Source: Methylocystis sp. (lineage in GTDB: Bacteria; Pseudomonadota; Alphaproteobacteria; Rhizobiales; Beijerinckiaceae). From it: DNA of 64,000 nucleotides. Each line of letters begins with the position of its first letter. The first letter of the stretch is position 1. The stretch covers positions 5,300 to 69,299 of the forward strand of contig DATBRI010000085.1 in the NCBI GenBank assembly GCA_036560365.1, read 5' to 3'. Position numbers and translations under genes: made by a program. Positions 10,613 to 47,601 of this stretch are shown piece by piece. The notes beneath the pieces were generated by a model. The model was not told where the DNA came from, did no database searches, and saw only the letters and a list, made by a program, of their open reading frames with translations.

Positions 10613-10699
10613 TCCGTCAAGCCGGATCATGCTCGCGGGGTGATTGATTCCGCCGCCGCCCTAATTTCTAAACCTGCTCGACTCTAATCGAGTTAGATC

Positions 10700-11641
10700 A
10701 TGGCGTCGCGCTTTGAACATCTTGAGCGGGTGGAGCTCGTGCATGACGCGGGCGCGATCACCGGCGAAAACCCGACGTGGTCCGAGCGTGAACAGCGCCT
10801 CTATTGGATTGACATCGAAGAGCCTGCCTTACACAGATTCGATCCCAGCTGCGGCGAGGACGAGCGATGGGTCATGCCGTGCCAGATCGGCGCCTTCGCG
10901 CTGTGCAGCAGCGGGGACGTTCTTGTCGCCTTGCGGCTAGGACTTGCAAGAATTTCGCTGTTTGAAGGCAAGTTCGCCTCGCTCAATGCGCTTCCCTACA
11001 ATCCGCTCACGCACCGGTTCAACGAAGGCAAATGCGACGCTCGCGGCCGCTTTTGGATTGGCGCGAAATATGATCCGCTGCAGAGCGCAACCGGCGAACG
11101 CAGCGCAAGCGCCGCCAGCCCTCTCGGCGGCGCGGCGCCAGTCCATTTTCTTGCTCATGGGCAGGCGCTGACTCCGACGGCCGCGAGCGCCGTGATCGCC
11201 AACGGCATGGCTTGGAGCACTGACAATCGCATCATGTATCTTGCCGATACGCCGACGCGCACGGTGACGGCTTTTGATTTCGACCTTGAAAGCGGCGCAC
11301 TATCATCGCCGCGAGTGTTTGCGCATTTCAAGCGATCGGGGGACGGGAAGCCCGACGGCGCGGCGATCGACAGGGACGGCTTCTACTGGTGCGCGCTTTA
11401 TGGCGGCGGGCGTATCGTGCGCATCGCGCCAGATGGCGCCATTGACCGCCAAATTCATCTGCCCGTCAGTCAACCTACGATGTGCGCATTCGGAGACGCA
11501 GATTATCGCTCGCTCTACATCACCTCCGCATCACAAGGCGTTTCGAAGCAACAGGAGCCTCACGCAGGCGGCATTTTTCGCTGCCGTCCGGGCGTCGAAG
11601 GACGTCCGCCCAATCTCTTCGCGGACGAGGCGCCGTCATGA
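10700..11641 (+). CDS. SMP-30/gluconolactonase/LRE family protein
   Basis: 313-aa ORF with 'GENPTWSEREQRLYWIDI', 'NEGKCDARGRFWIG', 'ANGMAWSTDNRIMYLADT' and 'PDGAAIDRDGFYWCA', typical of the six-bladed lactonase fold. Confidence 0.8.
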   Translation: MASRFEHLERVELVHDAGAITGENPTWSEREQRLYWIDIEEPALHRFDPSCGEDERWVMPCQIGAFALCSSGDVLVALRLGLARISLFEGKFASLNALPYNPLTHRFNEGKCDARGRFWIGAKYDPLQSATGERSASAASPLGGAAPVHFLAHGQALTPTAASAVIANGMAWSTDNRIMYLADTPTRTVTAFDFDLESGALSSPRVFAHFKRSGDGKPDGAAIDRDGFYWCALYGGGRIVRIAPDGAIDRQIHLPVSQPTMCAFGDADYRSLYITSASQGVSKQQEPHAGGIFRCRPGVEGRPPNLFADEAPS

Positions 11642-12915: not shown

Positions 12916-12950
12916 GCGCAGGACACGCGCAAAGAACACAGGAGCATCCG

Positions 12951-22320: not shown

Positions 22321-22550
22321 GGTGCGAGCGAGTCTTTTCCGAAAAAATTTTACCATGCCTGGACCGATCAGCGGGGAATAGAGCAGGCCGATCGCGCCAC
22401 GCCGCAGTTCAATCGAACAACCGTTTCATATGAGACTTCGAGAAATTTTTTTTTGGCTGCGGAATAATAATCGATCGAATGAAGTCTTCTCAGCAAGGCT
22501 GGATTTCCTCTTTCTTGCTGGAACCGCCGAGAGGGAATGGAGAAGGCGTT

Positions 22551-22715
22551 ATGGCGATAAAACCCACGGCGATGCTCGCTGCAGCGCTTGCCACCGGAGC
22601 TTTGATGATAACCGCAAATCAGGAAGCCTTCGCGCGCGGCGGCCGTTGGTCCCACAGCGGATATGGACGCGACATCGGATCATTGGAAACCGGAAGGCGC
22701 GCAACGCGCGTGTAA
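22551..22715 (+). CDS. possible small secreted peptide
   Basis: 54-aa reading frame from an internal ATG preceded by GGAGAAGG. It has a signal-like 'MAIKPTAMLAAALATGALMITANQEAFA'. Short and unsupported by homology. Confidence 0.3.
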   Translation: MAIKPTAMLAAALATGALMITANQEAFARGGRWSHSGYGRDIGSLETGRRATRV

Positions 22716-22877
22716 CAAATCGGCCGTTCGATACGAAAATGAGGTGGACGCATAGCGGGTCGCCCATAGTTCTCCGGGCTTCTTGTCTCGCGTCTTAAAT
22801 GAGGATCGATGTCCGCGCGCAGCAGCCAACGCGGAGTGGGCAGGGTCCGCACATCTGTAATCGACGAAAGGCTCACA

Positions 22878-33131: not shown

Positions 33132-33133
33132 CG

Positions 33134-34369
33134 ATGGCGCGCGCGCTGTTCGTATGGCTGCATCGCTGGGCGGGACTGGCGATGACGGGCTTCCTGATCG
33201 TGGTCGGGCTGACGGGAAGCCTGCTCGCGTTCTGGGGCGAGTTGAACCACTGGCTGACGCCGGAACTTTATCCCGCTCAACGCGCTGGGATAGAACTCGA
33301 CGCGGCGACGCTGGCGCGCCGCGCCGAATCCATCGTCCCGCAGGCGCGCGCAGCGACCGTCTACATGGGCCATCCAGGCTCGGTCTCGATCGGTATGGAG
33401 GCGCGCGACGGCGCGCCGCCGCTCGATTTCGAGTTTCTGCACCTCGATCCGGTCGACGGCCATGAACTGGGGCGCGTCACATGGCATGGGCTGCCGAGAC
33501 GCAAGAACGACATCATGCCCTTCGTCTACGGCCTGCACATGTATCTCGCGATGAGCGTCATCGGCGAGTGGATTCTCGGCGCCGTGGCGGTCATCTGGAC
33601 GATCGACTGTTTCGTCGGCTTCTATCTGACGCTGCCGGCGCCGAGCGAGCGCTCACGCAAAGGCTTCTTCGCGCGCTGGACGCCGTCATGGCAGGTGAAG
33701 CTCAGGAGCTCTTTCTATCGCGCCAACTTCGATCTGCATCGCGCGAGCGGACTGTGGCTCTGGGCGATGCTCCTCGTCTACGCTTGGTCGAGCGTGTTTT
33801 TCACGCTGCCGAATTTCTATACGCGCGCGACGCAGCTCGTTCTCGATTACGAGCCGCCGGTCTGGGCGCAGGCGGGAACGTCGCAGACCGACGCGCGTCC
33901 GCCGATGGAATGGGAGGCGGCGCAGGCGACCGGCGAGCGGCTGATGGCCGAAGAGGCGCGCAAACACAACTTTGCGATCGAACGACCGCTGGCGCTTTAT
34001 CACCTGCGCGGAAAGGGACTTTACGAATATCGCGTGCGCTCGTCGCGCGACATTGGCGACAAGGCGGGCTCGACCTCGATCCTTTTTGACTCGCGCTCGG
34101 GCGAACTGAGGACCCTTAGCCTGCCGACGGGGCATCGCAGCGGAACGACGCTGACCACCTGGCTCGTCGAGCTGCACACGGCCAATCTCTTCGGTCTTCC
34201 CTACAGACTTCTGGTCTGCCTTCTGGGCCTCGTCATCACAATGCTTTCCGTCACCGGCGTTTACATCTGGTGGAAGAAGCGTTCGGCGCGGCTGGCGCAT
34301 GTGCGCGGACGGCGCCGCGGCCGGCGCCGGCGGAGTGAAGGCGCGCTGATTTTGATGCGCATGGATTGA
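33134..34369 (+). CDS. PepSY-associated TM helix protein (PiuB/FoxB-like)
   Basis: 411-aa ORF starting 2 nt after the receptor stop. The N-terminus 'LFVWLHRWAGLAMTGFLIVVGLTGSLLAF' is typical of the family, and it has 4 TM helices. Confidence 0.8.
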   Translation: MARALFVWLHRWAGLAMTGFLIVVGLTGSLLAFWGELNHWLTPELYPAQRAGIELDAATLARRAESIVPQARAATVYMGHPGSVSIGMEARDGAPPLDFEFLHLDPVDGHELGRVTWHGLPRRKNDIMPFVYGLHMYLAMSVIGEWILGAVAVIWTIDCFVGFYLTLPAPSERSRKGFFARWTPSWQVKLRSSFYRANFDLHRASGLWLWAMLLVYAWSSVFFTLPNFYTRATQLVLDYEPPVWAQAGTSQTDARPPMEWEAAQATGERLMAEEARKHNFAIERPLALYHLRGKGLYEYRVRSSRDIGDKAGSTSILFDSRSGELRTLSLPTGHRSGTTLTTWLVELHTANLFGLPYRLLVCLLGLVITMLSVTGVYIWWKKRSARLAHVRGRRRGRRRRSEGALILMRMD

Positions 34370-34376
34370 CTTATTG

Positions 34377-34709
34377 ATGGAGCGACAAATGGATTTCGAT
34401 CCGATCAAACGCGGTCATTTCATCCAAAATCTGCGCCGCGCGCTGCCGCTGTCGGCCCATCCGCGGCCGGCGCTCCTCGGCTTTCTGCGCGAACGCGGCG
34501 TCATCGGGCGCGGCGCGCCGCGGCTCGTCGTCATCGATATTTTCGACGCCGGAGCGGCCCGCGGCGTCATGTGCCGCTTCGCCATCGCCGAGGATTGCGA
34601 GGCCGCGAGCTTCATCGCGCCGCTCGCGCAACTCGCGCTCGAGCGCAGACATCCCGCCCGCTTGCGCGTCGGGCGCCGTCGACAGGCGCCGGCTCCAGGC
34701 GCCGCATGA
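34377..34709 (+). CDS. hypothetical small cytoplasmic protein, translationally coupled to the second TonB receptor
   Basis: 110-aa frame with strong GC3 bias. The ATG lies 7 nt after the PepSY stop, and the stop overlaps the receptor ATG (ATGA). No family recognised. Confidence 0.45.
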   Translation: MERQMDFDPIKRGHFIQNLRRALPLSAHPRPALLGFLRERGVIGRGAPRLVVIDIFDAGAARGVMCRFAIAEDCEAASFIAPLAQLALERRHPARLRVGRRRQAPAPGAA

Positions 34710-36808
34710 AGGCGACGCTCGCCGCTTTGCTTTGTGCATGCGTCGGCGCCTCGCAGGCGTTCGCTGAAGCGTCGCGGGAGGATGAAGGCAAAGACAAGGT
34801 GCAGAGCCACGGCAAGCGGCGCGCAAAGGAAGAGGCCGGCGCGAAGAACCGAGCCGAAGCACAGGCCGGGCGGCAGGGCAAGGAGCCGGAGAACGCCGAA
34901 CCGCGCGGCGTTGCGCCCAACGCGCAGACGCTCGGGCGCGATCAGAGCGGCGTCTATGTCAACGCGCCGGCCGCCAACAGCGCTTTTTCGCCGGAGTTCG
35001 TCATGCGCGGCTTTCCCGCAGGCGTCACGCTCTTCGACGGGGCATCGCGCGGCTTCACGGCCCAGGAGGTCGATCTCTCCACCGTCGACCATGTCGAGTT
35101 CTACAAGGGGCCAAGCTCCATGTTGTTTGGCAAGGCGCTGGGCGGCTACGGCGGCGCCGCCAATTACATCCGCAAGGCGCCGACGCAAGAGACTTTCGCC
35201 CGCGCTGTCGCCACGAACGCCAGTTTCGCCGTCACAAGGCTGACCGCAGACGTCAACGCGCCGCTCAATGACTCCAAGAGTCTCTTGTTTCGAATGACGG
35301 GCTCGGCGCAGAGCCTCGGCAGCTTCGTCCAGTTCACACGCTCGCGCAGCTTCGACATTGCGCCGATGCTCGCCTTCACCGCAGACAATGGCGATCGCGC
35401 CAGCCTGCGCGTCGAGCATAATGGCAGGCGGCTCGTCTATCGCGACGGCGTGCCGGCAGATCCGATCTTCCTGCACATCCGGCGCGAGTTCTACGCTGGT
35501 ATTCCCGCCAACGAACACGAGACTCCCTTCTTCGATGACATCACCTTGCGGTACGAGCACGCCTTCAACGCCGACTGGAAGATCGCGGCCGTCGCCGATT
35601 ATTTCCTGAATGCGAACCGCTGGGGCTGGTTCACCGGCTGGGGCTATGATGGCTTCCAATCGGTCGTCTTCGGCAATCCCGTGCGCGCCCGCACCGCCAA
35701 CCGCAGCTTCGACGCGCAATTGCGCCTCAGCGGCCGTTTTGATACGGGCTTCCTGTCGCACACCGTCTTTCTCGGTCTCGAACATTGGGACTACTATTTC
35801 GGCTACAACAACGACGTCGCGCGCTACGAGGCGGCGCCGCTTAACATCGTCGCACCCATCTATTCGCCGGGCGTCAGCTATACCGGGGCCTATTGGTCGA
35901 ATGGCGTAGCGCGCGCCATCAGCCGCTCGGTCTATGGCCAGGACCTCATCGATCTGAGCGAGAACTGGCGCATTCTAATCGGCGGGCGTTACGATCTTCT
36001 CGCCCAGCGCGAGCGCGTCTTCGATCCGTTGGGCGCGCTGACGGGCGAACCCACAGCAAGTCTGAGCAAAGGGATCAAGGGCTATTTCAGCCCACGCGCC
36101 GGCATTCTCTATCAGCCGGACGAGGAGGATCAGTTCTTCGCCGCTTACGGCAAATCGCTGATCCCCAACACCGGCGTGCGCATTCAAAGCGGCGACGCGC
36201 CGCCGCCGCAGCAGGACACCCAATATGAAATCGGCTTCCGGCGCGAGTTTCTCGATCGTAAGATGAGCCTCGAAGTCGGGCTCTTCGACATCACCCGCGA
36301 CAATGTCGCCATTCCCAATCCGGCCAATCCCAGCGGGTTCTACTCGGTCGTCACCGGCCAGCAGCATAGTCACGGCGTCGAGATCAATCTCGGCGGCGAG
36401 ATTTTGCCCAACCTCAGAATCAACGCCGTCGCCACCTTCCTGCACGCGCTCGTGTCGAAGGACGATAATATTCCTTCGCAGCAAGGCAGCGATCTTTTGG
36501 GCGCGCCGCGTCGCGTCTATAGTTTCAACGCCAATTACACATTCGACACCGGCGACCTCAAGGGCCTCGAACTCGGCGCGAGCTATTATTACGCCAGCCG
36601 CCTGGAGGCGACGCTGCCCAACACTTATGGCTTCACGCTCGCGCCGCAGCAAATGCTCGGCGCCTCGCTCGCCTATAGCTTCAACGACAATCTCAAGCTC
36701 GAAATCAACGCCGCCAATTTCACCAATCGGCCGAACTGGACCTCAAACGGCGCCCTCTTCCATGGCGAGCCAAGGTCCGTGTCCGCCAGCCTTAGTTATA
36801 AATATTGA
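34706..36808 (+). CDS. TonB-dependent outer-membrane receptor
   Basis: Starts at the internal ATG 34706, giving the signal peptide 'MKATLAALLCACVGASQAFA'. A charged linker of about 60 aa follows, then plug motifs 'FVMRGF' and 'VEFYKGPSSMLFG', and a terminal 'SLSYKY'. Confidence 0.85.
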   Translation: MKATLAALLCACVGASQAFAEASREDEGKDKVQSHGKRRAKEEAGAKNRAEAQAGRQGKEPENAEPRGVAPNAQTLGRDQSGVYVNAPAANSAFSPEFVMRGFPAGVTLFDGASRGFTAQEVDLSTVDHVEFYKGPSSMLFGKALGGYGGAANYIRKAPTQETFARAVATNASFAVTRLTADVNAPLNDSKSLLFRMTGSAQSLGSFVQFTRSRSFDIAPMLAFTADNGDRASLRVEHNGRRLVYRDGVPADPIFLHIRREFYAGIPANEHETPFFDDITLRYEHAFNADWKIAAVADYFLNANRWGWFTGWGYDGFQSVVFGNPVRARTANRSFDAQLRLSGRFDTGFLSHTVFLGLEHWDYYFGYNNDVARYEAAPLNIVAPIYSPGVSYTGAYWSNGVARAISRSVYGQDLIDLSENWRILIGGRYDLLAQRERVFDPLGALTGEPTASLSKGIKGYFSPRAGILYQPDEEDQFFAAYGKSLIPNTGVRIQSGDAPPPQQDTQYEIGFRREFLDRKMSLEVGLFDITRDNVAIPNPANPSGFYSVVTGQQHSHGVEINLGGEILPNLRINAVATFLHALVSKDDNIPSQQGSDLLGAPRRVYSFNANYTFDTGDLKGLELGASYYYASRLEATLPNTYGFTLAPQQMLGASLAYSFNDNLKLEINAANFTNRPNWTSNGALFHGEPRSVSASLSYKY

Positions 36809-37428: not shown

Positions 37429-38799
37429 TCACTCGAAGTCGATAGGGGCGCTAATTGCGCAGGTAACGCCATCGGGAGAAAAGTCGAGGGATATCGTTCC
37501 CTTTAAGTCGCTGGCAAGCGATCGCTCAAGCAGCTTCGAGCCGAACCCGCGATGCGCCGGCCGTCCGACCAAGGGTCCGCCTGTTTCTTTCCAAATCAAG
37601 CTTAACCGCGGCGCGCCGTTTTCACGTTCGAGGCTCCAGCAAACGTTCACCTGACCCTCACTGCTCGATAGAGCTCCGTATTTGAGCGCATTGGTGCAGA
37701 GTTCATGCAATCCCATAGCGAGCGCTAAGGCCGCTTTAGGCCTGAGTTTCAGATCGGGACCTTCGATGCTGAATCGATCGGCCGCCCCATGAAGCTGCGC
37801 CGCCTTGACCACGATCTCTCTGAGATCCGCAGTCCGCCAGCTGCCGCGCGTCAAAACGTCATGCGCCGCCGAAAGCGCGCAGAGTCTGTTCTCGAACGCC
37901 TCGACTTTCGCTTCATCGACGCCGGCGCCTCGAAATGTCTGCGACGCGAGCGACTGCACGATGGTCAGCGTGTTCTTCACCCTGTGGTCGAGTTCATTGA
38001 TCAGCGTTTCTTTATGCTGTTCAGCTCTCTTCCGCTCTGAAATATCGACCGCCCAACAGCCCGCGGTTGTGATGTCGTTTGAGGCGTCCCGCACAGGGAA
38101 AAACCCCGCCAACCAGTGCTGGTCGCCGGCGTTGAAGCCCTCGGAAAGCTCCAAATTTTGCAAGGAAGCTCCAGTTGAGAAAATCTCGCCGAGGGAATTT
38201 TCGAGAGAACTGGCGCTGTTTGGAAAGAGTTCCTTGATTGTGCGGCCGATGTGGCCCTTCGCCGAGAGCGCGCTGATGCCGGCGAACTCGTTGTTGATCC
38301 GCGTGCAGCGACCCGCCTTGTCGAAAAACGCAAGCCCGATCGGTGCGCTAGAGAGCAGCGCTTCCAACTCGAGGGTTCGAGCGAGGAGGCGTTCGTTCGC
38401 GACGCGCAGCTGATCCTCGGCGCTTTTTGCGCGTAACAAGGCCCTGACCGTTGCGACCAGCACCGGCGCTTCCGCTGGCTCCACCAAATATGCGTCGGCG
38501 CCCGCGTCAAGCGCCGTCACCTTGGCGTCAGCGCCGATAAACGTCGCCGAGGTCTGCAGCACCATGATGTCGGGCCGCTTTCGTTTGATCTCTCGACAAA
38601 CTTCCGTGCCCAGAATGTCAGGCAGCATCGTATCGAGAACGACGAGGTCCGTCGGGCGCGAAGCGACGAAGGCGAGCGTCTCCTCGCCGCCGCTCGTTTC
38701 ACTGACTGACCAGCCCGCCTTTTGCAGCGCCCGCACCTTGGCGTAGCGCGCCTCGGCAATGTCGTCGACGACCAGCAGACGGGCGCTCTCAACATTCAT
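37429..38799 (-). CDS. receiver-PAS-HWE/HisKA_2 histidine kinase
   Basis: Starts at 'MNVESARLLVVDD' (M107 of ORF 37429..39117), overlapping the upstream stop (ATGA). Receiver Asp is in 'LVVLDTMLPD'. A PAS-like middle domain follows. The H-box 'ELDHRVKNTLTIVQSL' and 'HELCTNALKYGA' are typical of HWE/HisKA_2 kinases. Confidence 0.8.
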   Translation of the reverse strand: MNVESARLLVVDDIAEARYAKVRALQKAGWSVSETSGGEETLAFVASRPTDLVVLDTMLPDILGTEVCREIKRKRPDIMVLQTSATFIGADAKVTALDAGADAYLVEPAEAPVLVATVRALLRAKSAEDQLRVANERLLARTLELEALLSSAPIGLAFFDKAGRCTRINNEFAGISALSAKGHIGRTIKELFPNSASSLENSLGEIFSTGASLQNLELSEGFNAGDQHWLAGFFPVRDASNDITTAGCWAVDISERKRAEQHKETLINELDHRVKNTLTIVQSLASQTFRGAGVDEAKVEAFENRLCALSAAHDVLTRGSWRTADLREIVVKAAQLHGAADRFSIEGPDLKLRPKAALALAMGLHELCTNALKYGALSSSEGQVNVCWSLERENGAPRLSLIWKETGGPLVGRPAHRGFGSKLLERSLASDLKGTISLDFSPDGVTCAISAPIDFE

Positions 38800-40208
38800 G
38801 GCTGGGCTCCCGCGCCCAGCGCCTCGGCCACGATTGGGGCGAGCGACTCTTTCGACAGCCCGGCTTTTGCAATGACTTGCTTGGCGCACCCGAGGCGTCC
38901 GAGATCCTGCTCGTTTAAAGCTGTCGCGGTGACGACGACGATCGGGACCTGCGCTGTTTTTGGGTTGTCCGTCAGCCGGTCGAGCACATCGAAGCCGCTG
39001 ATGCCTGGTAATTTGAGGTCGAGCAACACCAGATCCGGGGGCTGTTTGGCGGCGCTCTCCAGCCCCGCTTCGCCCGTCGCGGCTTCGCTGAGAACGTAGG
39101 GCTCGTCCGCGAGACACCTACGAATGATATAGCGCGAGGCCTCGTCGTCGTCGATCAGAAGGACGCGCTTTACGTCTGTCTCGTCGATCAATTGATGCAG
39201 CTTTGCGAGGAGCCAAGCGCGTTCGATGGGCTTTATTCCGTAGCCGTCAGCGCCAAGCCGCGCTGCTTTCGCGCGGTCCTCAATCGTTGAGACGACAATA
39301 ACGGGAATCTCCTGCGACTCCGGCGCGCTCTTGAGATCGGCCAGCAGCGCCCAAGTGTCTGCGCCTTCGAGCAAGAGATCGAGAATAATCGCGCGCGGTT
39401 TGACGTCCTGGATTTTCCGCCGCGCCTCCTTCAAGGTTCGCGCGGCGACGAGCCTGTATGGAGAGTGGCGCAGAGTGGCTTCATAGACGATCATATCTGC
39501 GGGGTCGTCTTCGATCGCAAGAACTGGAATGCGCGCATCTTCCGGCGGCGGCTCGGTTGAAGGCTCGGCAGGGTCTGTCGCGGAGCCAGCGTAGGCGGCC
39601 GGCAGCGTAAAGGAGAAGGTCGATCCCTTGCCCACCGCGCTGTCGACGTAGATATCGCCGCCCAAAAGTTTGCACAGCCGTTTCGACAAGGGGAGCCCCA
39701 GTCCCGTGCCCCTCACCTTGCGTTGTATCGGGCTATCGAGTTGTGAGAACTCCTGAAAAATGAGCTCATGATGCTCTGAGGCGATGCCAATGCCGTCGTC
39801 CTTAACCGTGAATGTGAAACACCCATCGGATAGCGATGCGCTGACGCGAATTTCCCCTGCCTCAGTGAATTTCAGCGCATTCGAAATCAGATTACGCAGC
39901 ACCTGTGAAATCTTGGCCTCATCGCTATACATCTCCGGCAGCGACGATGCGTCCTCGAAGACGAGGTTGACCTTGTCTCCAACGAGCAGCGGCCGGAGCA
40001 TGCCGCGCAAGGCGCCGAAGAGATCGCCGATCCGGAATTCGACGGGCCTGATCTCGATCCTGCCGGCTTCGACTTTCGCGAGATCGAGAAGGTCATTGAC
40101 GAGTTCGGTCAGGCTCTCCGCCGATTTTCGGATGAACGAGACTTGGCGCTCCTGCTCAGGCATGAGCTCGCCGTCGCAGCGATCGAGCAGCAGGTGGGTG
40201 AGCGCCAA
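38796..40208 (-). CDS. hybrid kinase core (DHp remnant without the phospho-acceptor His, HATPase_c) plus two receiver domains; 5' end disrupted
   Basis: The 470-aa ORF can only start at a TTG inside the H-box remnant ('..RTPLNSI-L-ALTHLLLD'). N-box 'NLISNALKFT', G-boxes 'DDGIGI' and 'GTGLGLPL'. The receivers are 'IPVLAIEDD...IILDLLL' and 'KRVLLIDDD...LVLLDLKLPG'. Confidence 0.7.
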   Translation of the reverse strand: MALTHLLLDRCDGELMPEQERQVSFIRKSAESLTELVNDLLDLAKVEAGRIEIRPVEFRIGDLFGALRGMLRPLLVGDKVNLVFEDASSLPEMYSDEAKISQVLRNLISNALKFTEAGEIRVSASLSDGCFTFTVKDDGIGIASEHHELIFQEFSQLDSPIQRKVRGTGLGLPLSKRLCKLLGGDIYVDSAVGKGSTFSFTLPAAYAGSATDPAEPSTEPPPEDARIPVLAIEDDPADMIVYEATLRHSPYRLVAARTLKEARRKIQDVKPRAIILDLLLEGADTWALLADLKSAPESQEIPVIVVSTIEDRAKAARLGADGYGIKPIERAWLLAKLHQLIDETDVKRVLLIDDDEASRYIIRRCLADEPYVLSEAATGEAGLESAAKQPPDLVLLDLKLPGISGFDVLDRLTDNPKTAQVPIVVVTATALNEQDLGRLGCAKQVIAKAGLSKESLAPIVAEALGAGAQP

Positions 40209-40357: not shown

Positions 40358-40762
40358 TCACTTCCAACGAATGAGTGAGACGCGCGTTCCATCGCCCGGC
40401 CGAGATTCGATCTCGAACTCATTGACCAGCCGCTTGGCGCCGCCCAAACCCAGCCCAAGTCCCCCGCCCGTCGTGAAGTGATCGCGCATCGCCTGTTCAA
40501 TGTCCGCGATGCCGGGACCCTCGTCTGAAAACGTCAATCGCAACCCTCGGCGCGCGCCGTCGCGAAGGAGCTCCAAAAGCAGCTCGCCGCCTCCGCCATA
40601 CTCGAAGGTGTTTCGCGCGATTTCGCTCGCCGCGGTGATGATTTTGGTCTGATCGATAAGACTCATGCCCATCGCGTTAGCTTGGAAGCGCACTTTCTGC
40701 CGCACGCGAACGATGTCTTCCGAGCTTCGAATCGGAACGGTATCAATCGTCTCCATCAGCAT
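40358..40762 (-). CDS. RsbT-like anti-sigma regulatory factor (serine kinase, HATPase_c_2)
   Basis: 134-aa ORF with 'IITAASEIARNTFEYGGGGELLLE', 'FSDEGPGI' and 'GGGLGLGLGGAKRLVNEFEI'. It follows two STAS genes. Confidence 0.8.
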   Translation of the reverse strand: MLMETIDTVPIRSSEDIVRVRQKVRFQANAMGMSLIDQTKIITAASEIARNTFEYGGGGELLLELLRDGARRGLRLTFSDEGPGIADIEQAMRDHFTTGGGLGLGLGGAKRLVNEFEIESRPGDGTRVSLIRWK

Positions 40763-41072
40763 CGGTCGACTCTGACTGCTCGATCAGCCTGTTGATCGTC
40801 TCCAGGCCCTTGTCGACGTTGCGGGCGGTCTGAATGCCGCTCAGCTGTACGCCCAGTTCGACGAGGGTGATCGCGACATGCGGCCGCATCCCCACGACAA
40901 TGGTGACGGCGTCAAGCACCCTTGATGCGCTGGCTATGTTGCTAAGCATGCGGCCAATGAAGGAATCGACGATCTCGAGCGCGGAAACGTCAATCAAGAC
41001 GCCCTTGGCCCTGGTGGAAACGATCGCGTTGGTGAGATCGTCCTGCAGCGCCATGGCGAGGCGGTCATGCAT
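40743..41072 (-). CDS. RsbS-like single STAS domain protein
   Basis: 109-aa ORF with 'GVLIDVSALEIVDSFIGRML' (conserved Ser in the D-x-S context). Overlaps the rsbT-like gene by 20 nt. Confidence 0.8.
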   Translation of the reverse strand: MHDRLAMALQDDLTNAIVSTRAKGVLIDVSALEIVDSFIGRMLSNIASASRVLDAVTIVVGMRPHVAITLVELGVQLSGIQTARNVDKGLETINRLIEQSESTDADGDD

Positions 41073-41134
41073 GTCGATGTGAATTGACGAGAAGGCACTT
41101 GCCGACTTTGAGGATCGGGATCTTGTCCACCGCG

Positions 41135-41995
41135 TCAGCCTCGCGCCGCTACGCGTTCCACCTTCTGACCCGTCTTTTTCAATGCCATGGAGAGGGCATC
41201 GGCCATCGTCGCTTTAGAGACCACTTGAAGATCGAGTCCCAGATGAACGATCGTCTGGGCGATCTGCGGACGGATGCCGCTGATGATGCAATCTGCCCCC
41301 ATGAGCCGCGCCGCCGCCACCGTCTTGATCAAATGCTGCGCGACCAACGTATCGACGGCCGGCACGCCCGTGATGTCGATGATGGCGATTTCCGCCTCCG
41401 CGTCGACGATCGTTTGTAGAAGATTCTCCATCACGATCTGCGTCCGTGCGCTATCGAGCGTGCCTATGAGCGGCAGCGCGAGAATCTTGTCCCAAAGCTG
41501 GATGACCGGAGTCGACAGCTCCAACAATTCGTCCTGTTGACGCTTGATGAGCTCTTCGCGGCTCTTCTGATAAACCTCGGTGGTGAATAAGCCGAGACGA
41601 TCGAGAAGCACGCCCGAGGCGATCACCACGTCTGTCAGGTTCTCTTCGCCGGCCAGCATTTTCCGCAGCAGATCGAACAGCGGCTCTTTCAGCGAGAACA
41701 CAAATAGCGCAGTCTCGACGGGACTGTATCCACGCAGCGCACGGGCCGTCGAAATTTCTTCGAGCACCTCGCGCGCGTCTTGCCACTGTTGGCCGGTGAT
41801 ATCTTCTCCGGCGCCATTTTTAAGAGCGCTGCGTAACTCTTTCAGGAATCGCCCGCAGGCGTCCTTCAAATCCTTATCTGACGTCTGACCGCTGCGCGTG
41901 GCGCCCGCCGCGGTCAGCGTGGCGATCCATCGGCCAAGCAGGTCCTTTTCGCTCTGTTCGATAGCGTTGGCGAGCGCGTCAAAGTTTGCCGGCAT
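41135..41995 (-). CDS. RsbR-like stressosome sensor (N-terminal non-haem globin-like domain + STAS)
   Basis: 286-aa ORF. The C-terminal STAS is 'LSTPVIQLWDKILALPLIGTLDSARTQ...IIDITGVPAVDTLVAQHL'. The N-terminal helical domain is about 150 aa. Confidence 0.8.
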   Translation of the reverse strand: MPANFDALANAIEQSEKDLLGRWIATLTAAGATRSGQTSDKDLKDACGRFLKELRSALKNGAGEDITGQQWQDAREVLEEISTARALRGYSPVETALFVFSLKEPLFDLLRKMLAGEENLTDVVIASGVLLDRLGLFTTEVYQKSREELIKRQQDELLELSTPVIQLWDKILALPLIGTLDSARTQIVMENLLQTIVDAEAEIAIIDITGVPAVDTLVAQHLIKTVAAARLMGADCIISGIRPQIAQTIVHLGLDLQVVSKATMADALSMALKKTGQKVERVAARG

Positions 41996-42284: not shown

Positions 42285-43031
42285 GTGGAAAAGACGGTGA
42301 GCGGAGATGTCGGCCCTTCTGCCTTTTTCAAGGCCACGTCGCATGCCTTCAGCGAGACGATAGGCTCCCGCGGGGGGTGCCCGGAGCTTGTCGCGCTGCT
42401 TTGCGCGCAGGCTTTCGACAGTTTCACGCAAAACGTCGCCATTCAGGCGGCGGGCGCGCCGGCGCTCGCCTGTCAGGGAGAATGCGCGGCCTGTTGCCGC
42501 CTTCGCGTCGTCGCGACGGCTCCGGAAATATTTCTGCTCGCGCGATTCATTTCCGTTAACGCCGCCGCCTTTAGGGAGCGCGGCATAATGCTCCCTAAGC
42601 GCATCGCCGACGCCGATCAGGCCGTTGGCGGCCTGTCTGAAGACCAGCGACTGACCGCCCAGCATGCCTGCCCGCTGATCGAAGGCGAATTATGCCTCGC
42701 CTATAGGATTCGTCCGCTTGCTTGCCGCGGTCATGCGGCGTTCGATAAGGCGTTATGCCTTGCCGCTGTGGGAGGCGAAGCCGTTGACGCGCCGATCTCC
42801 ACGCCGCAGCTCGTTGTCCGCAGCCTCGTTCAGAACGCCCTGATGGCGGCGCTGCGGCGCGCCGGACTGGCTTGGGAACTTTACGAACTCAACAGAGCGC
42901 TCAACTGCGCGCTCTCGACGCCGCATGCGCTCGAACAATGGATCTCGGGCGAAGATCCATTGACGAACGCGCGAATTCCAGACTTCGACCTTATTGAAGC
43001 AGGGGCGATTTTCGATGCCGCCACCGCGTAG
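42285..43031 (+). CDS. YkgJ/UPF0153-like cysteine-cluster (Fe-S/Zn) protein
   Basis: 248-aa ORF (GTG start). Cys clusters 'CQGECAACCRL' and 'ACPLIEGELCLAYRIRPLACRGH' match the CxxCxxCC-family pattern. The start codon is uncertain. Confidence 0.55.
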   Translation: MEKTVSGDVGPSAFFKATSHAFSETIGSRGGCPELVALLCAQAFDSFTQNVAIQAAGAPALACQGECAACCRLRVVATAPEIFLLARFISVNAAAFRERGIMLPKRIADADQAVGGLSEDQRLTAQHACPLIEGELCLAYRIRPLACRGHAAFDKALCLAAVGGEAVDAPISTPQLVVRSLVQNALMAALRRAGLAWELYELNRALNCALSTPHALEQWISGEDPLTNARIPDFDLIEAGAIFDAATA

Positions 43032-43094: not shown

Positions 43095-44495
43095 TCAGTG
43101 CGGCGGCATCCAGATCCAGAGTGGAGGCGGCCCAGGAAATCGGACATCTTTTGCGATCGTCGCGTCGTCGACATTGTCCGGTTTCAGATAGACATAATAA
43201 TTGTCGACGCGCTGAAATAACTCGTTCGTGGGTGTGCTCTCGGGACTGACAAGCATGTTGTTGCTGAAGCGCACATGCATGTAGTGCGGCAATAACTCGG
43301 TGAATTTCGCCAAACGGGCCTCAAAAACGAAGCGATAGAGCTGCCGGCCGGTTACTTTCAGCACCGCGGCGGTCGCGTCGTCGATGGGCGTCAGCGGCGC
43401 TTCCTGCCAGCCGGCTCCAACCTGAACGAAACCCTGCACGCTCGGCGACATGACGTAAATGGGTTGTTCGGGTTTTGTGTTCTCCAGATAAATCGTCACC
43501 TCGTAACGGCCCTCGCCCAATGACGAAATCGACGCGACGTCGCTACGCAAGGTGGACGTCGCAAGTTCTTCGAGGGCGGCGAGTCGCTGTCGACCGGCGT
43601 CGAGTTCATACTGTTGGTAGCGCGCCACGCCGTAATTTGCCGAGGACGCTAAGACGAATATCAGCGCCGCGGCGGCGAAGATGCGTCCCGCTGTCGCCCA
43701 CAGCGTCTTGCCAAGTCTTTCGAAATCGCGAGCGCCGTCCGCATCGGCGCCGACCGGCGCGGACGCCTTTGCCGCACTCGGCTCGGGGCGCCAGATCGGC
43801 GTGGCGACGAAGTCGCGCGGCGCGTCTCTCGGAAGGAGAATTCCTTGCCGCATCTCGAACATTCGGTCAGCGCGTTGAGCAAGCGCATGATTATGCGTGA
43901 CGAGCACCACTGCGAAATTTTCTTCTTGCCGCAAATTATCGAGCAGCTCGAAAATCTCTTCTTCCGTCTCTTCGTCGAGATCGCTTGTCGGTTCGTCTCC
44001 GAGAAGCAATCGCGGCTCATTGATCAAGGCCCGAGCGATGACGACGCGACGCTGCTCGCCGCCGGACATCTGTCCTGGAAAGGCTGCCATCCGGTCAGAG
44101 AGGCCGACGCGGGCGAGAAGGCCTTGCGCGCGGGCATAGGCGCCTTCCGGCGTCACCTCATCCCCCAGCAGAGCTGGCAAGGCGACGTTGTCGATGGCCC
44201 GAAGATTTGGAAGGAGGCTCGGGAATTGAAAGACGAAACCGATGCGCTCCCGCCGCACATCGGCAAGCTGCGCCTCTGAAAGATCCCAGATCTCTTCCCC
44301 CGAGAGTTGAACCCTACCCTCAGTCGGCGGCGTCAGCCCGCCGACCATGGCGAGCAGCGTCGATTTGCCGGAGCCGGATCGTCCGACGATTGAAACGAAC
44401 TCGCCTGCGCCAAGGACGAAATCGGCGCCGATCACCGCATCCACGCCAGGATCGCCGCCGTAACGCTTGCGCAAACCCTGGGCGGAAAGGATCAT
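43095..44495 (-). CDS. ABC transporter ATP-binding protein fused to a C-terminal TM helix and extracytoplasmic domain
   Basis: Starts at 'MILSAQGLRKRYGG' (M42 of the ORF), overlapping the permease stop (ATGA). Walker A 'GRSGSGKST', signature 'MSGGEQRRV', Walker B 'LLLGDEPTSDLD'. Then comes a linker, the TM helix 'IFAAAALIFVLASSANYGV', and a domain of about 190 aa with no family recognised. Confidence 0.8.
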   Translation of the reverse strand: MILSAQGLRKRYGGDPGVDAVIGADFVLGAGEFVSIVGRSGSGKSTLLAMVGGLTPPTEGRVQLSGEEIWDLSEAQLADVRRERIGFVFQFPSLLPNLRAIDNVALPALLGDEVTPEGAYARAQGLLARVGLSDRMAAFPGQMSGGEQRRVVIARALINEPRLLLGDEPTSDLDEETEEEIFELLDNLRQEENFAVVLVTHNHALAQRADRMFEMRQGILLPRDAPRDFVATPIWRPEPSAAKASAPVGADADGARDFERLGKTLWATAGRIFAAAALIFVLASSANYGVARYQQYELDAGRQRLAALEELATSTLRSDVASISSLGEGRYEVTIYLENTKPEQPIYVMSPSVQGFVQVGAGWQEAPLTPIDDATAAVLKVTGRQLYRFVFEARLAKFTELLPHYMHVRFSNNMLVSPESTPTNELFQRVDNYYVYLKPDNVDDATIAKDVRFPGPPPLWIWMPPH

Positions 44496-45799
44496 CGTGC
44501 GCTTTCCATCTGGATCATCGCATAGGGTTCGAGACGCCGTGTCCGCCAAGCGGCGACAAAAGCGCCTCCGACGCCGATCGCGACGCCGCAGAGCGCGGCG
44601 ATGCCCGCGGCAATCCATATGATTCCAGCGGGCGGGGCGTTGAAGGGCACGTCGAGGGACGAGAAATAAAAGCCGAGCGAACGGGAAAAAACGAAGATCA
44701 GCGAGAAACCCGCGCCGATGCCTAACACGCCGCCAAAGCCTGTGATGAGCCCCGCCTCGATCAGGGTGATCGATATGATCTGCGCCGGCCTCGCGCCCAT
44801 GGCCCGCAGCACGCCGATTTCGCGATAGCGCTCTTGGACGATGGCGGAAAACAACAACGACACGAGAAAGAATATCGCGAGCATCAGCAATCCAGCGAAA
44901 ATCGCAACACCCCAGAATAGACTGCTCAGGGATTGGCGCGCCGCGGTGAAGATCGGATTGCCTGTGACGATTTTGATTGCCGGGATCTGTCCAATGGCGA
45001 AACGCGCTTGCTCAGCCGAGGCGCCGGGCGACAGTTGCAAGAGAAACGCAGAGACACGATCCGGCGCGATTGACGGAAGGCATTCGGCTCGTCCTGCGGC
45101 GTGATGATGATGCGTCGCGTCGACCCCTTCCGAAGGCGAAGACGCGGGCGGATGAACTGCGACGTTCGCAGGGCGCGCCCGGATCGCGGCCGCGACAAGT
45201 TCGTCGAGCGCGGAAAAGGTGATGAAATAGGATTCGTCAAAGGGGCCGACGCCCGTTCGACCCAATCGTCCCGTCACGATCAGCGACCGGCCACAAATCG
45301 TCACAGCTTCGCCGATCTTCAGCGCGACCCGCTCGCCAACGAGCAGCCCGCCCGTGGCGGCCACCGGTTTCTGCGCCGTGGGAAGCCAAGATTCGACGGT
45401 GAAATCCGTCGCCTGATCATAGGCGATCAGATTGATCGCGCGCCCCTCGACGTTTGCGCGGATGAGACGCTGCGCGGCGACCTTCGCCACGCCGGGAACG
45501 GCTCTCAGCCTCTCGCCCAGAGCAGCATCCAGATCGAGGTCCGTCGGCTGTATCGTGAGCAGCGTGCTAGTGATGTTCACCAAAGCGCCTTGCGGCACGA
45601 CAAGGAGATCGGCGCCCATGCGCGAAAAGGTCGTCAAGATTCCTTCCCGCAGCGACCAGCCGGCGACAAAGCCGGAGAAGACAACGCCGACGGCGATCAT
45701 CACCGCCATGCCGAGCAAGAGACTCCGCAACAGCCGACGTCCGACGTTCTGGGCGCCGAGCCGCACCAGCAGGAAGCGCGCGCGATGGCGTTTGGTCAT
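44492..45799 (-). CDS. FtsX/MacB-type ABC transporter permease
   Basis: Starts at 'MTKRHRARFLLVRLGAQNVGRR' (M34; the ORF extends to 45898). It has one TM helix, a periplasmic domain of about 230 aa, then three TM helices with 'ERYREIGVLRAMGARPAQI' (FtsX core). Confidence 0.8.
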   Translation of the reverse strand: MTKRHRARFLLVRLGAQNVGRRLLRSLLLGMAVMIAVGVVFSGFVAGWSLREGILTTFSRMGADLLVVPQGALVNITSTLLTIQPTDLDLDAALGERLRAVPGVAKVAAQRLIRANVEGRAINLIAYDQATDFTVESWLPTAQKPVAATGGLLVGERVALKIGEAVTICGRSLIVTGRLGRTGVGPFDESYFITFSALDELVAAAIRARPANVAVHPPASSPSEGVDATHHHHAAGRAECLPSIAPDRVSAFLLQLSPGASAEQARFAIGQIPAIKIVTGNPIFTAARQSLSSLFWGVAIFAGLLMLAIFFLVSLLFSAIVQERYREIGVLRAMGARPAQIISITLIEAGLITGFGGVLGIGAGFSLIFVFSRSLGFYFSSLDVPFNAPPAGIIWIAAGIAALCGVAIGVGGAFVAAWRTRRLEPYAMIQMESAR

Positions 45800-45936
45800 A
45801 GCGGAACCGTTACCTGCAGTTCGATGCGGCCTCGCTTGTGAGCGGCGCCGCTCGTTGACCAGCCGAGACAGCTTGAGACGCTCGTCCTCCCGAAACAAAG
45901 CGAGGTGAACGATCCCCTTGCGGGTTCGCCGATCCG

Positions 45937-47601
45937 TCAGACAGTGGTGCAGCGGCTGTGGATCAGTTCCTGATTGTTCCGCGGAACAATGACGCAGTCG
46001 TGGTGACCGCCGAAGTTCGGGATATAACCCACGGGCTCCAGCGTATCCTGAGTGAAGACGAATGTTCCTCCTTCGAGCCGCTGGAATCCGCTGAAGATCG
46101 CGAGCACATATTTGCCGTCATAGGTGACGTGCATCGTCTGCAGGTCGACGCCGACATTCTCGAAGCGCTTGATTGTCGCCCAGGTGTTGGTGTCGACGAC
46201 GACGATGGCGCTTTTCGCCGGCTTCTGATGCAGCTCGGAGACAAACATCTTTGAGCCGTCCATCGAATAGGTGATGTGGAACGGGCTTGGCGTCGAGCCG
46301 ACCCAGTGCGAGTCCTTGAACTCAGCGACTCGCTTCCAGTTGCGCGGATCGCGGTCCGAACAATCGAATATGCCCATGCTGTTTTGCCGGGTGTTGTTCG
46401 TCATGGCGAACCATTTGCCCTGCGGGCCAAAGCCGCATTCGTGTCCCGACGACACAACATTGTCGAGCTTGATGTCCCAAATGCCGTCGGCGATTTTTTT
46501 GACCGGAATGCTTTCCTTCGTCGTGCCGTCAGGCGAAGAGATGCACGCAACCGGCTCCATCGTCGTCCGGTCGATGACGACGCCCACAGCGAACATGCGA
46601 AGCGTCACCAGCGAGAGTGGATGGATCGGATGGTGGACGCAATTATCGGCGCCGGTCAGCGTCTTCACCGAATCCCCCGGAAGCTGTCCCGTATAGGCGA
46701 GATACTCGCCCATCGGCACCATCTCCCAGTCGAGCTTGTTTCCCTTGACGCCGCGATAATCGTAGAGCCCGGTGTCAGGCGCCTTTATGAGACGGGAAAC
46801 GCGAACGGTTCCGCCCTTGAACCAGTTGTCCTCGAGCACGCCGTCGGGTTCGTTTCCACGCCAATCGAAACGGAAGGCGTCGATCACCGTCGTCTTCTGG
46901 TTTCCGGTCGCGCGATTGAAGAAGGCGACCACATCCTTTTGTCCGTCCGCGACGGTGAAACCAGACGCATCCGGGAAGATCACGGTGTGCACGCCAAGTC
47001 CGATCCCCGTGGTCTCGGCGACATTCTCGAGCAAATTCATCTGCTGCCCGTCGAAACCGACGCGATAGATCTGATTGCCCTGGCCCCACAAAGGATCGAG
47101 CATTCCATGTTCCCGGATCTGCGTGGGAATGCCATAAATCAAGACGTTCTGCCCGCCCTGGGTCGAGTTTACGAACTCGAAGCCTTTGCGCGGGTCGGCC
47201 GAAGGAAAGGCCGCGAGATGATGGGCGATGGGGCAGCTGTCGCCGTAATTCCAATATTCGATCCAGGCCATTGTCTTGCCGGTCGCAAGATCCTGCACCT
47301 GAGCGCCTCCGCCGAGCTTCGTCGGAGTCAGCCAGACGTAATCGCCGAGCGTCGCAAGACGCGGCGCATTCGCCTCCGCCGCCGACGCTGAGTCTCCCAT
47401 CAGACGTGACAACAGCCCTGTCGCATTGGCGGATTTGCCGCCGAAAATGGTCCCGATGATTCCGGCGGTAGCGGCGCGTAGCACCTCTCTTCGTTCAACC
47501 CGGCCACGCTGATTGAGTGGCGGCGCAACCTGTGGCGCGGCGATCTCCGATATCACGCAATGTCCAACTTTTTCCGACGGGACGTTTTGATCGGTAAACA
47601 T
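45937..47601 (-). CDS. TAT-exported histidine-rich beta-propeller protein, NosZ-N-domain / thiocyanate dehydrogenase-like (putative multicopper centre)
   Basis: The ATG at 47601 is preceded by GGGAGAG (the ORF extends to 47658). Twin-arginine leader 'VERREVLRAATAGIIGTIFGG'. His motifs recur about every 45-55 aa: 'IAHHLAAFP', 'GVHTVIFPD', 'VHHPIHP', 'SGHECGFGP', 'FHITYSMDG', 'MHVTYDGK', 'GGHHDCVIVP'. There is no CuA/cupredoxin tail and no CxxCH. Confidence 0.55.
   Translation of the reverse strand: MFTDQNVPSEKVGHCVISEIAAPQVAPPLNQRGRVERREVLRAATAGIIGTIFGGKSANATGLLSRLMGDSASAAEANAPRLATLGDYVWLTPTKLGGGAQVQDLATGKTMAWIEYWNYGDSCPIAHHLAAFPSADPRKGFEFVNSTQGGQNVLIYGIPTQIREHGMLDPLWGQGNQIYRVGFDGQQMNLLENVAETTGIGLGVHTVIFPDASGFTVADGQKDVVAFFNRATGNQKTTVIDAFRFDWRGNEPDGVLEDNWFKGGTVRVSRLIKAPDTGLYDYRGVKGNKLDWEMVPMGEYLAYTGQLPGDSVKTLTGADNCVHHPIHPLSLVTLRMFAVGVVIDRTTMEPVACISSPDGTTKESIPVKKIADGIWDIKLDNVVSSGHECGFGPQGKWFAMTNNTRQNSMGIFDCSDRDPRNWKRVAEFKDSHWVGSTPSPFHITYSMDGSKMFVSELHQKPAKSAIVVVDTNTWATIKRFENVGVDLQTMHVTYDGKYVLAIFSGFQRLEGGTFVFTQDTLEPVGYIPNFGGHHDCVIVPRNNQELIHSRCTTV

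Follow-up and report, generated by a model that had tools for sequence, protein, structure and literature searches.

Thiocyanate dehydrogenase (TcDH, EC 1.8.2.7), an enzyme with three copper ions, is among the few copper enzymes whose reaction does not involve oxygen. It is represented by the enzymes of Thioalkalivibrio paradoxus (PDB 5F75) and Pelomicrobium methylotrophicum (PDB 8Q9X). The published active site comprises K103, H135, H136, Q156, H206, E288, D314, H381, H437, H482, H528, D529 and R544 (PMC6504805, Fig. 4 legend). ABC permease/ATPase pairs encoded with TcDH were described for Thioalkalivibrio in 2017 (PMC5328954, PMC5744179), with thiocyanate raising the expression of the ABC genes beside TcDH 4.5- to 6.7-fold in this organism (PMC5744179). 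Nitrous oxide reductase, NosZ, with its maturation system NosDFY-NosL, is a second point of comparison, as this Tat-exported seven-bladed propeller carries a hub His-ligated multicopper centre and is encoded alongside a dedicated ABC complex and a periplasmic component. A third is provided by the type VII ABC complexes, which include MacB, LolCDE and FtsEX. These complexes do not transport a substrate over the inner membrane, and their ATP hydrolysis is instead converted into movement of periplasmic domains.

The window analysed here, a stretch of 64,000 nucleotides from the methanotroph Methylocystis sp., contains three co-directional ORFs on the minus strand (45937..47601, 44492..45799/45898 and 43095..44495). 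Gene 1 encodes 554 aa counted from the ATG that is preceded by AGGGAGAG. It is separated from gene 2 by 38 nt, or by 137 nt with the permease start at 45799, and genes 2 and 3 are joined by an ATGA overlap. The public gene calls for the source contig have identical starts and give products of 554, 435 and 466 aa, so that the layout described in the initial annotation is borne out. Its statement that the window holds no cyanase, sox, nosR/nosL or cytochrome c gene also agrees with the present survey: neither the called genes of roughly 10 kb to each side nor the scanned ORFs of the window included a recognisable cyanase, sox, nos or cytochrome c gene. Scans for promoters and terminators in the operon gave no useful information. 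Downstream of it, the window contains stressosome-like and two-component genes. The features of the locus are as follows.

45937..47601, minus strand: gene 1, predicted Tat-exported seven-bladed beta-propeller of the TcDH family, Gln-482 branch (phmmer, AF2/Foldseek, alignment)
47353..47601, minus strand: leader of gene 1, residues 1-83, with the twin-arginine pair RR at 37-38, ERREVLRAATAG (sequence, conservation, model)
46630..46635, minus strand: His323-His324 pair, specific to the sub-branch, where TcDH has F/Y/W-D (alignment, model, translation)
46138..46140, minus strand: codon of Gln488, at the position of the TcDH active-site residue His482 (alignment, translation)
44492..45799, minus strand: gene 2, FtsX/MacB-type permease of 435 aa with TM1, a periplasmic core domain and TM2-4 (Pfam, synteny)
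43791..44495, minus strand: N-terminal half of gene 3, ABC ATPase with a LolD/MacB/FtsE-like nucleotide-binding domain (Pfam ABC_tran 3e-31; NCBIfam LolD 222 bits, below the cut-off of 308)
43638..43712, minus strand: single predicted TM helix of gene 3 linking the ATPase to the periplasmic domain, hydrophobic stretch LWATAGRIFAAAALIFVLASSA, within the long helix 16-80 of the model
43095..43790, minus strand: C-terminal half of gene 3, membrane-anchored stalk helix and beta-sandwich accessory domain with YMHVR and C-terminal MPPH (homology, AF2)

Gene 1 is a bona fide homologue of TcDH. In a phmmer search against the PDB, residues 83-553 matched pmTcDH (8q9x/8yu5) with an E-value of 1e-129 and tpTcDH (5f75) with 1e-116, and identity to the characterised enzymes is 42-46%. 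The AF2 model (pLDDT 77.9) was compared by Foldseek with known structures and superposes as a propeller on twenty TcDH chains with a TMt of 0.91-0.93 (0.93 to 8z75), while the next fold family reaches 0.60. The leader, which like that of TcDH is of the Tat type, contains the motif ERREVLR, in which, across 41 homologues, R38 never varies and R37 is conserved to at least 90%, pointing to export via the Tat pathway. Residues 1-82 have a pLDDT below 50, leaving the leader unstructured in the model, and homology to mature TcDH begins at residue 83. Motif and Pfam scans found no CxxCH motif, no cupredoxin tail and no cupredoxin or other Pfam domain. The initial annotation had thus been right about the twin-arginine leader, the missing CxxCH and CuA/cupredoxin tail, the fold and the hub-histidine design, and its lead to TcDH proved correct.

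The same cannot be said of the likeness to NosZ that it had drawn, which is a generic propeller similarity only: NosZ (6rl0) ranks 45th in the Foldseek comparison with a TMt of 0.39. No sequence homology of gene 1 to NosZ was detected, with no match in the PDB sequence search even at an E-value of 10, and it has no CuA cupredoxin domain. What the two share is the Tat-exported seven-bladed propeller with a hub His-ligated multicopper centre, the latter predicted for gene 1, and, as a functional analogy, the ABC complex and periplasmic component encoded alongside. The ABC genes are here of the FtsX/MacB type (type VII) and not of the NosY/NosF type. There is no NosD beta-helix and no NosL, and the survey of the called genes (about 10 kb to each side) and the scanned window ORFs recognised none of nosDFY, nosL and nosR.

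Alignment with TcDH indicates that gene 1 keeps 12 of the 13 published active-site residues, namely K95, H127, H128, Q148, H205, E293, D319, H387, H442, H534, D535 and R550, which are near-invariant across 120 homologues. The one exception is His482, replaced by Gln488. In TcDH, His482 is a ligand of the third copper. Engineered TcDH structures with the substitutions H482Q (6SJI) and H447Q (8YU5/8YU6) are present in the PDB, according to the titles of Foldseek matches. The replacement co-varies with Q382E, G292M, F104L, D319H and other differences from TcDH. Equivalence to the TcDH residues, as suggested in the initial annotation, holds for 12 of the 13, whereas Gln488, which had been missed, takes the position expected to carry the sixth-blade ligand. 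From the list of proposed histidine ligands, H127/128, H205, H387, H442 and H534 align with TcDH active-site residues, while three others are unconserved or lie away from the copper site. H327 and H491, like H548, show no conservation beyond close relatives. The pair HH323/324, which had been proposed as hub ligands, is indeed conserved in 118 of the 120 homologues, yet it corresponds to no active-site position of TcDH. In the model, H323 would be the last residue of strand 318-323, as placed by strand registry only, and the ligand D319 is at the start of this strand; the pair is thus predicted at the opposite end of the strand from D319, a difference from TcDH. Two substitutes for known ligands were considered and rejected: HH323/324 does not stand in for Asp314, as D319 aligns with that residue, and H491 is not a shifted His482, as Ala or Ser is found there in 104 of the 120 homologues.

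Glutamine at position 482 defines a large branch of the family. It is present in 165 of the 245 sequences compared, which makes it about twice as common as the His type (n=76) in this sampling. All 162 sequences of the Gln branch carry Gln at this position and all 76 classical sequences carry His. The Gln sequences all cluster together, the distant outgroups have His, and the branch also differs consistently from the classical enzymes at positions beside K103, E288 and H381. Motifs derived from sequences of the Gln branch have at least 317 matching stretches in species-representative genomes; the best 80 of these were inspected, and the Gln signature was found in all 79 that could be aligned. 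The hosts include methanotrophs, Melainabacteria, Planctomycetes and others, none of these three groups being known to us as thiocyanate oxidisers or as having a thiocyanate metabolism. Atmospheric-methane oxidisers are also among the hosts. A literature search found no experimental report on any member of the Gln branch.

Gene 2 has Pfam matches above the cut-offs to FtsX (PF02687, 67 bits, 1.7e-18) and MacB_PCD (PF12704, 38 bits, 2.3e-9), and shares 34% identity with the permease that comes first in a classical TcDH cluster. The four-helix FtsX permease, MacB-like periplasmic core and LolD/FtsE-like ATPase resemble those of MacB, LolCDE and FtsEX. All NCBIfam scores of genes 2 and 3 are nevertheless far below the family cut-offs (LolD 222 versus 308, LolC/E 23 versus 362, FtsE 169 versus 265, FtsX 21 versus 255 bits). 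For MacB the scores are 25-178 bits against a cut-off of 966, and the ATPase is here a separate gene. The partners MacA/TolC, LolA/B or amidase activators of those systems are missing, and no conserved HlyD or OEP gene was found near the module in the neighbour survey and the called genes.

Gene 3 (466 aa) begins with an ABC_tran domain, in which Walker A, Walker B and the signature motif are conserved; some 230 additional residues come after it and include a single hydrophobic helix. Its C-terminal domain has homologues among the small proteins that classical TcDH clusters encode separately (E-values of 4e-44, 9e-30 and 3e-34). Gene 3 is therefore a fusion of the ATPase with the small "hypothetical" protein of these clusters, which is a new finding. 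We know of no described architecture in which an ATPase bears its own TM helix and a periplasmic beta-sandwich. The AF2 model of the domain (pLDDT 89.4) has a long stalk helix, and mechanotransmission to a long-helix periplasmic partner, as in FtsEX-EnvC, would be expected here. YMHVR and the terminal MPPH are conserved motifs; the conserved residues of the domain are Met, His, Tyr and Arg, with no conserved cysteine among them. A known chaperone fold was considered for this domain and rejected, as it has no Pfam and no PDB-sequence match and resembles only generic Ig-like folds with a TM of at most 0.5.

In 70 of the 80 inspected genome loci, which represent at least six phyla, gene 2 is the next gene downstream of gene 1, and gene 3 comes after gene 2 wherever the contig extends. 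The remaining ten loci, eight of them from Methylococcales, have an intact active-site signature and no ABC genes nearby; those from Methylococcales are flanked by unrelated genes. A Gln-type homologue in Tautonia, located inside a copper-resistance island with multicopper oxidases, CopB and Csp, is likewise without ABC genes. A neighbouring ABC set is therefore not an absolute requirement for the enzyme gene. The neighbour survey found no further conserved neighbour in the Gln branch, be it a cytochrome, cyanase or copper chaperone. Classical His-type TcDH clusters also contain FtsX/MacB_PCD permeases, ABC ATPases and homologues of the gene 3 C-terminal domain after the enzyme gene, so that the ABC set at TcDH loci is of the FtsX/MacB type and family-wide. 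In these clusters there are two ABC pairs, compared with one here, and the accessory protein is fused to the ATPase only in the latter. YtkA-domain genes occur in two classical clusters, one of which is adjoined by tatABC, and copCD adjoins the Thioalkalivibrio TcDH. The Methylocystis locus, by comparison, has no copCD, cytochrome c, fccAB or sigma-54 regulator next to it. The initial annotation had correctly recognised the permease type and the ATPase with its extra TM helix and extracytoplasmic domain, and its association of the three genes holds across phyla. Its designation as a new copper-cluster enzyme system does not, since the fold, the cluster and the ABC association were already known for TcDH (PMC5328954, PMC5744179).

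The three genes probably belong together as a module that serves a periplasmic copper enzyme of the TcDH family, with the ABC machine most likely loading or activating its copper centre. Gene 1 would be exported by Tat and fold as a seven-bladed propeller, whose central tunnel would hold the metal and catalytic residues of TcDH. We infer that it contains copper, in a centre with an altered third site, and that it may oxidise thiocyanate or a closely related small sulfur or pseudohalide substrate. Genes 2 and 3 would form a type VII (MacB/FtsX/LolCDE-like) ABC complex, in which the ATPase would be tied via TM helix and stalk helix to the periplasmic beta-sandwich domain. This machine would act on the exported enzyme, in analogy to the action of NosDFY-NosL on nitrous oxide reductase. 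The Met/His motifs of the fused domain and the copper-chaperone genes of classical clusters lean towards such an assembly role. Further hints of copper are the tatABC and copCD genes beside classical TcDH genes and the copper-resistance island around the Tautonia homologue. Against maturation stand the loci without ABC genes, the lack of detectable similarity between the accessory domain and known copper chaperones, the titles of PDB entries, which separate 'non-activated' TcDH from TcDH, and the loading of recombinant TcDH with copper in vitro without ABC or accessory proteins. Hosts not known to oxidise thiocyanate and a window without a cyanase or cytochrome c gene also count against this explanation.

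It is unlikely that the ABC/accessory set handles the sulfur product and not copper, either by removing or handing over zero-valent sulfur at the copper centre or by MacB-like extrusion of hydrophobic sulfur from the periplasm. Such a role would suit the TcDH products cyanate and elemental sulfur (PMC9456337), the expulsion of periplasmic substrates by MacB-type machines (PMC5985334), and the co-induction of the ABC genes with the enzyme on thiocyanate, not on copper limitation. However, no membrane-fusion protein or outer-membrane duct is conserved beside the module, the accessory domain offers no conserved cysteine for sulfane sulfur, and ten homologues with no ABC genes beside them still function or have at least remained intact. 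The long stalk helix would also be compatible with a BceAB/FtsEX-like sensor or regulator, which reports the status of substrate or enzyme or switches the periplasmic enzyme and has no part in assembly, much as FtsEX controls periplasmic enzymes through a coiled-coil partner (PMC7668044). The downstream stressosome-like and two-component genes point the same way, but across the Gln branch they do not consistently accompany the module and are replaced by other neighbours in close Methylocystis relatives. As the permease also lacks the ten-helix BceB architecture, regulation appears quite improbable.

A different alternative concerns the enzyme itself. Gene 1 may have lost the third copper and become a binuclear or re-purposed protein that does not oxidise thiocyanate. 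It might then detoxify or scavenge some other small molecule, or bind copper in methanotrophs with their high demand for this metal. The uniform Gln at the His482 position, the switched second-shell positions beside K103, E288 and H381, a host range unlike that of thiocyanate oxidisers and the Tautonia homologue in its copper-resistance island are in line with this scenario. It is nevertheless given little credence. The residues that coordinate copper and water and shape the cavity (PMC6504805), K95, H128, E293, Q148, D535 and R550, are invariant, which argues for retained TcDH-like chemistry. Furthermore, Gln is able to ligate copper, for example in stellacyanin. A more far-reaching form of the module hypothesis is possible, if doubtful: the Gln-482 branch would be a widespread copper enzyme with a function of its own, acting on another substrate with a cluster that is re-ligated or smaller and may involve the tunnel residues His323/His324, and the FtsX-type ABC complex with its fused beta-sandwich would be an unrecognised mechanotransmission-driven machine for metallocentre assembly.

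Gene 1 is not a new enzyme family and belongs to the known TcDH family, of which, to our knowledge, only the His-482 type has been studied so far. Since hosts of the Gln type have no known thiocyanate metabolism, automatic "thiocyanate desulfurase" labels on Gln-type genes may over-call thiocyanate degradation in metagenomes. Beside the ABC genes described in 2017, the small hypothetical proteins emerge as a conserved third component with invariant Met/His motifs, fused to the ATPase in this locus, and lead to a testable model in which a type VII ABC machine would mature a copper centre in the periplasm. If the Gln branch is indeed a distinct enzyme with an ABC assembly machine, this would be a second, unrelated solution to the problem that NosDFY-NosL solves for NosZ.

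Three co-directional ORFs occupy 43095–47601 on the minus strand of the Methylocystis sp. contig:

45937–47601, minus strand: gene 1, Tat-exported beta-propeller (554 aa), start ATG at 47601 with AGGGAGAG ahead of it
44492–45799, minus strand: gene 2, FtsX/MacB permease, most plausibly starting at the ATG at 45799 (435 aa)
43095–44495, minus strand: gene 3, ABC ATPase with a C-terminal domain, start ATG overlapping the gene 2 stop codon (466 aa)

The three-gene arrangement recognised in the initial annotation is real and well above chance, and its ORFs match public gene calls, with identical lengths on the source contig (JGI metagenome, 115 kb; 554/435/466 aa) and 550/435/466 aa in near-identical Methylocystis genomes. 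Gene 1 is 93–96% identical to homologues of M. silviterrae, M. rosea, M. suflitae and others.

Gene 1 is matched by no Pfam or NCBIfam model. In a search of solved-structure sequences, its residues 83–553 match thiocyanate dehydrogenase (TcDH) of Pelomicrobium methylotrophicum (8Q9X/8YU5) with an E-value of 1e-129, and Thioalkalivibrio TcDH (5F75 and others) with ~1e-116. An AlphaFold model with 41 homologues as input (pLDDT 77.9, pTM 0.79, low confidence in the leader) superposes on twenty TcDH chains with a target-normalised TM of 0.91–0.93. The next fold family is NirF (TM 0.60), and NosZ follows at rank 45 (TM 0.39). On the basis of these matches and the superposition, the TcDH lead of the initial annotation is correct, and the resemblance to NosZ is the generic likeness of two seven-bladed propellers. 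The term "new copper-cluster enzyme system" was too strong, as gene 1 is a TcDH family member with family-typical ABC partners.

The TcDH active site, as given in the legend of Fig. 4 of PMC6504805 (5F75 numbering), consists of K103, H135, H136, Q156, H206, E288, D314, H381, H437, H482, H528, D529 and R544. In the alignment, the gene 1 equivalents are, in the same order, K95, H127, H128, Q148, H205, E293, D319, H387, H442, Q488, H534, D535 and R550. Twelve of the thirteen residues are thus retained, the sole change being His482 to Gln488. Among the hub histidines proposed earlier, H127/128, H205, H387, H442 and H534 map to this active site, and the remaining ones fail as hub ligands. At the position of H491, the suggested sixth-blade ligand, 104 of 120 homologues have Ala or Ser; in this set, H327 and H548 are restricted to close relatives and HH323/324 is kept in 118. 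HH323/324 is ruled out as the Asp314 counterpart, since D319 aligns with Asp314. In the model, strand 318–323 has D319 as its second residue and ends at H323; strand geometry would place this residue, four positions beyond D319, facing the central tunnel.

The change at position 482 was followed in a pooled set: the top 120 relatives of gene 1, the top 120 of the Thioalkalivibrio paradoxus enzyme (tpTcDH) and several distant representatives. This position holds either His or Gln, apart from four sequences with a gap or Arg. The other twelve residues are invariant in 119 aligned tpTcDH relatives and near-invariant among the 120 gene 1 relatives. Average-linkage clustering yields one cluster of 165 (161 with Gln and the four with a gap or Arg) and a separate cluster that takes in every one of the 76 His sequences, among them both crystallised enzymes. 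Together with His in four distant outgroups (25–40% identity), the single Gln cluster indicates that Gln is derived and arose once. Within it, positions 323/324 are His-His in the gene 1 sub-branch and Trp-His, His-Asp or Phe-Asp elsewhere. The Gln and His clusters also differ consistently at further positions, several adjoining active-site residues (His to Gln cluster):

F104L: adjoins K103
G292M: four residues past E288
Q382E: adjoins H381
D319H (TcDH numbering): gene 1 position 324
W452L, N459S, Y500F, K502R

Such co-varying changes are the pattern of coordinated remodelling, not drift. Crystal structures exist for engineered H482Q and H447Q mutants of the classical, His-type enzymes (PDB 6SJI, 8YU5, 8YU6).

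When each species, represented by a single genome, was scanned with two peptide motifs from the Gln-branch alignment, 317 encoding stretches were found. The best 80 come from methanotrophs (Methylocystis, Methylocapsa, USC-alpha; Methylococcales) as well as Chromatiales, Solibacteraceae, Melainabacteria/Obscuribacterales, cyanobacterial MAGs, Planctomycetes, Nitrospirota and Actinomycetota. Of these 80, 79 are alignable; 75 carry the full KHHQHED-HH-HH-Q-HDR signature, and the other four are truncated or deviate solely at position 324. Retention of the listed copper- or water-coordinating and cavity-shaping residues argues for TcDH-like chemistry; the Gln switch, second-shell changes and host range argue for caution. 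In Methylotetracoccus oryzae (9821–11464), the homologue is apparently split into ORFs of 221 and 317 aa, and either a pseudogene or a frameshift from assembly may explain this; this lineage also lacks adjacent ABC genes. Tautonia sociabilis (795–13344) has a Gln-type homologue of the Phe-Asp sub-branch, labelled "methanethiol oxidase" in UniRef, without ABC genes; it lies within a copper-resistance island that also encodes two multicopper oxidases, CopB, the copper-storage protein Csp, an outer-membrane factor and an adjoining P-type ATPase.

The MacB/FtsX-type assignment of the ABC genes was borne out. Gene 2 contains FtsX and MacB_PCD domains (Pfam), and the N-terminal part of gene 3 is a LolD/MacB/FtsE-like ATPase with intact motifs. 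Every NCBIfam score lies far under the LolCDE, MacB and FtsEX cut-offs, and the pair is therefore a type VII ABC lineage of its own. A four-His run (DATHHHHAAG) in the gene 2 periplasmic domain (residues ~229–232; 45100–45111, minus strand) lies within a variable insertion and shows no conservation across the 68 aligned family members. The initial annotation had proposed checking synteny in other genomes: the permease gene directly follows gene 1 in 70 of 80 loci (the contig ends within it in four), and the ATPase gene is next wherever the contig reaches that far. Its C-terminal extension is lacking solely in a few loci that are truncated where the contig stops. When the flanking ORFs were all clustered, no further neighbour proved widely conserved. 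In the ten loci without ABC neighbours (eight Methylococcales, one Nitrospirota MAG, one Schlesneria contig) the adjacent genes are unrelated; as the Methylococcales homologues show, ABC adjacency is not obligatory.

Elsewhere in the window, the following features were observed:

40358–41995, minus strand: stressosome-like set just downstream of the module (RsbR-like protein with RsbRD_N and STAS, STAS protein, RsbT-like kinase)
37429–40208, minus strand: hybrid histidine kinase and response-regulator genes (HWE_HK, PAS), after that set
42285–43031, plus strand: convergent 248-aa ORF adjoining the gene 3 end, weak CxxCxxCC motif (YkgJ-like, PF03692)
59515–61638, minus strand: heavy-metal P1B-type ATPase ~12 kb from gene 1 (TIGR01525, 482 bits; copper-subfamily score under its cut-off)
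30771–36808, plus strand: PepSY_TM protein between two TonB-dependent siderophore-type receptors
22430–22798, plus strand: sole window ORF with CxxCH (122 aa)

The stressosome-like set is ruled out as part of the module, since close Methylocystis relatives have other genes there. No NCBIfam model matches the 248-aa ORF, and its homologues occur in just a minority of related loci. A P-type ATPase also adjoins the Tautonia homologue. The receptor region, a cluster for uptake of iron or another metal, has no syntenic link to the module. The 122-aa ORF is probably not a cytochrome c, because no Pfam or NCBIfam model matches it.

The link between TcDH and ABC genes is already known from Thioalkalivibrio. 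Berben and co-workers described two permease/ATPase pairs after TcDH, with permeases of one plus three helices; next come one or two genes for hypothetical proteins, together with a sigma-54 two-component system, all of them thiocyanate-induced (PMC5328954, PMC5744179). Each of three retrieved His-type loci encodes TcDH, two or three FtsX/MacB_PCD permeases, two short ATPases (221–243 aa) and two or three small proteins (174–230 aa) without Pfam domains; tatABC is adjacent in one. Two of the three contain a YtkA-domain gene. In the Nitrospirota-like MAGs, this YtkA-domain (PF13115) protein closes the cluster (16368–16781 in L089, 15239–15640 in L090) and bears a PWM(P/T)xHxHG motif. Bacillus YtkA/CtaK is a copper chaperone in CuA assembly, and these genes support a copper-delivery theme for TcDH clusters.

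BLASTP detects homology between the C-terminal 231 residues of gene 3 and two small proteins in every classical locus (E-values 4e-44, 9e-30, 3e-34, 8e-21, 9e-21 and 1e-15), and by this homology the small hypothetical proteins are a conserved third part of the system. This component is free-standing in classical clusters, whereas in the Gln branch, a Trp-His sub-branch locus included, it is joined to the ATPase in one polypeptide; this fusion argues that it physically works together with the ABC complex. Modelled with pLDDT 89.4, the domain consists of a long helix (membrane span and stalk) and then a beta-sandwich, and no Pfam, PDB-sequence or specific fold relative was found for it. Two motifs, Y-M-H-V-R and M-P-P-H at the extreme C-terminus, are conserved among 67 family members taken from the genome loci and again in a second, independent set (39 members), and also occur in one accessory protein of every classical cluster.

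In type VII ABC proteins, ATP hydrolysis drives motions of the periplasmic domains; these proteins act on partners in the periplasm and do not carry out inner-membrane transport (PMC5985334, PMC7668044). In the best-supported reading, the ABC complex would act on the exported gene 1 enzyme via the tethered beta-sandwich domain. The ABC set may possibly handle product sulfur or have a regulatory role. Met and His are typical Cu(I) ligands. Copper loading or activation of the enzyme is the favoured, inferred role, because the conserved accessory-domain residues are Met and His and because classical clusters add copCD or YtkA-type genes. The closest functional precedent for the module's ABC set is NosDFY–NosL (PMC6530538, PMC8457098). 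New for the TcDH family are the uniform Gln-482 branch with its wide, unexpected distribution, the MacB/FtsX classification of the TcDH partners, and the identification of the accessory domain and of its fusion.
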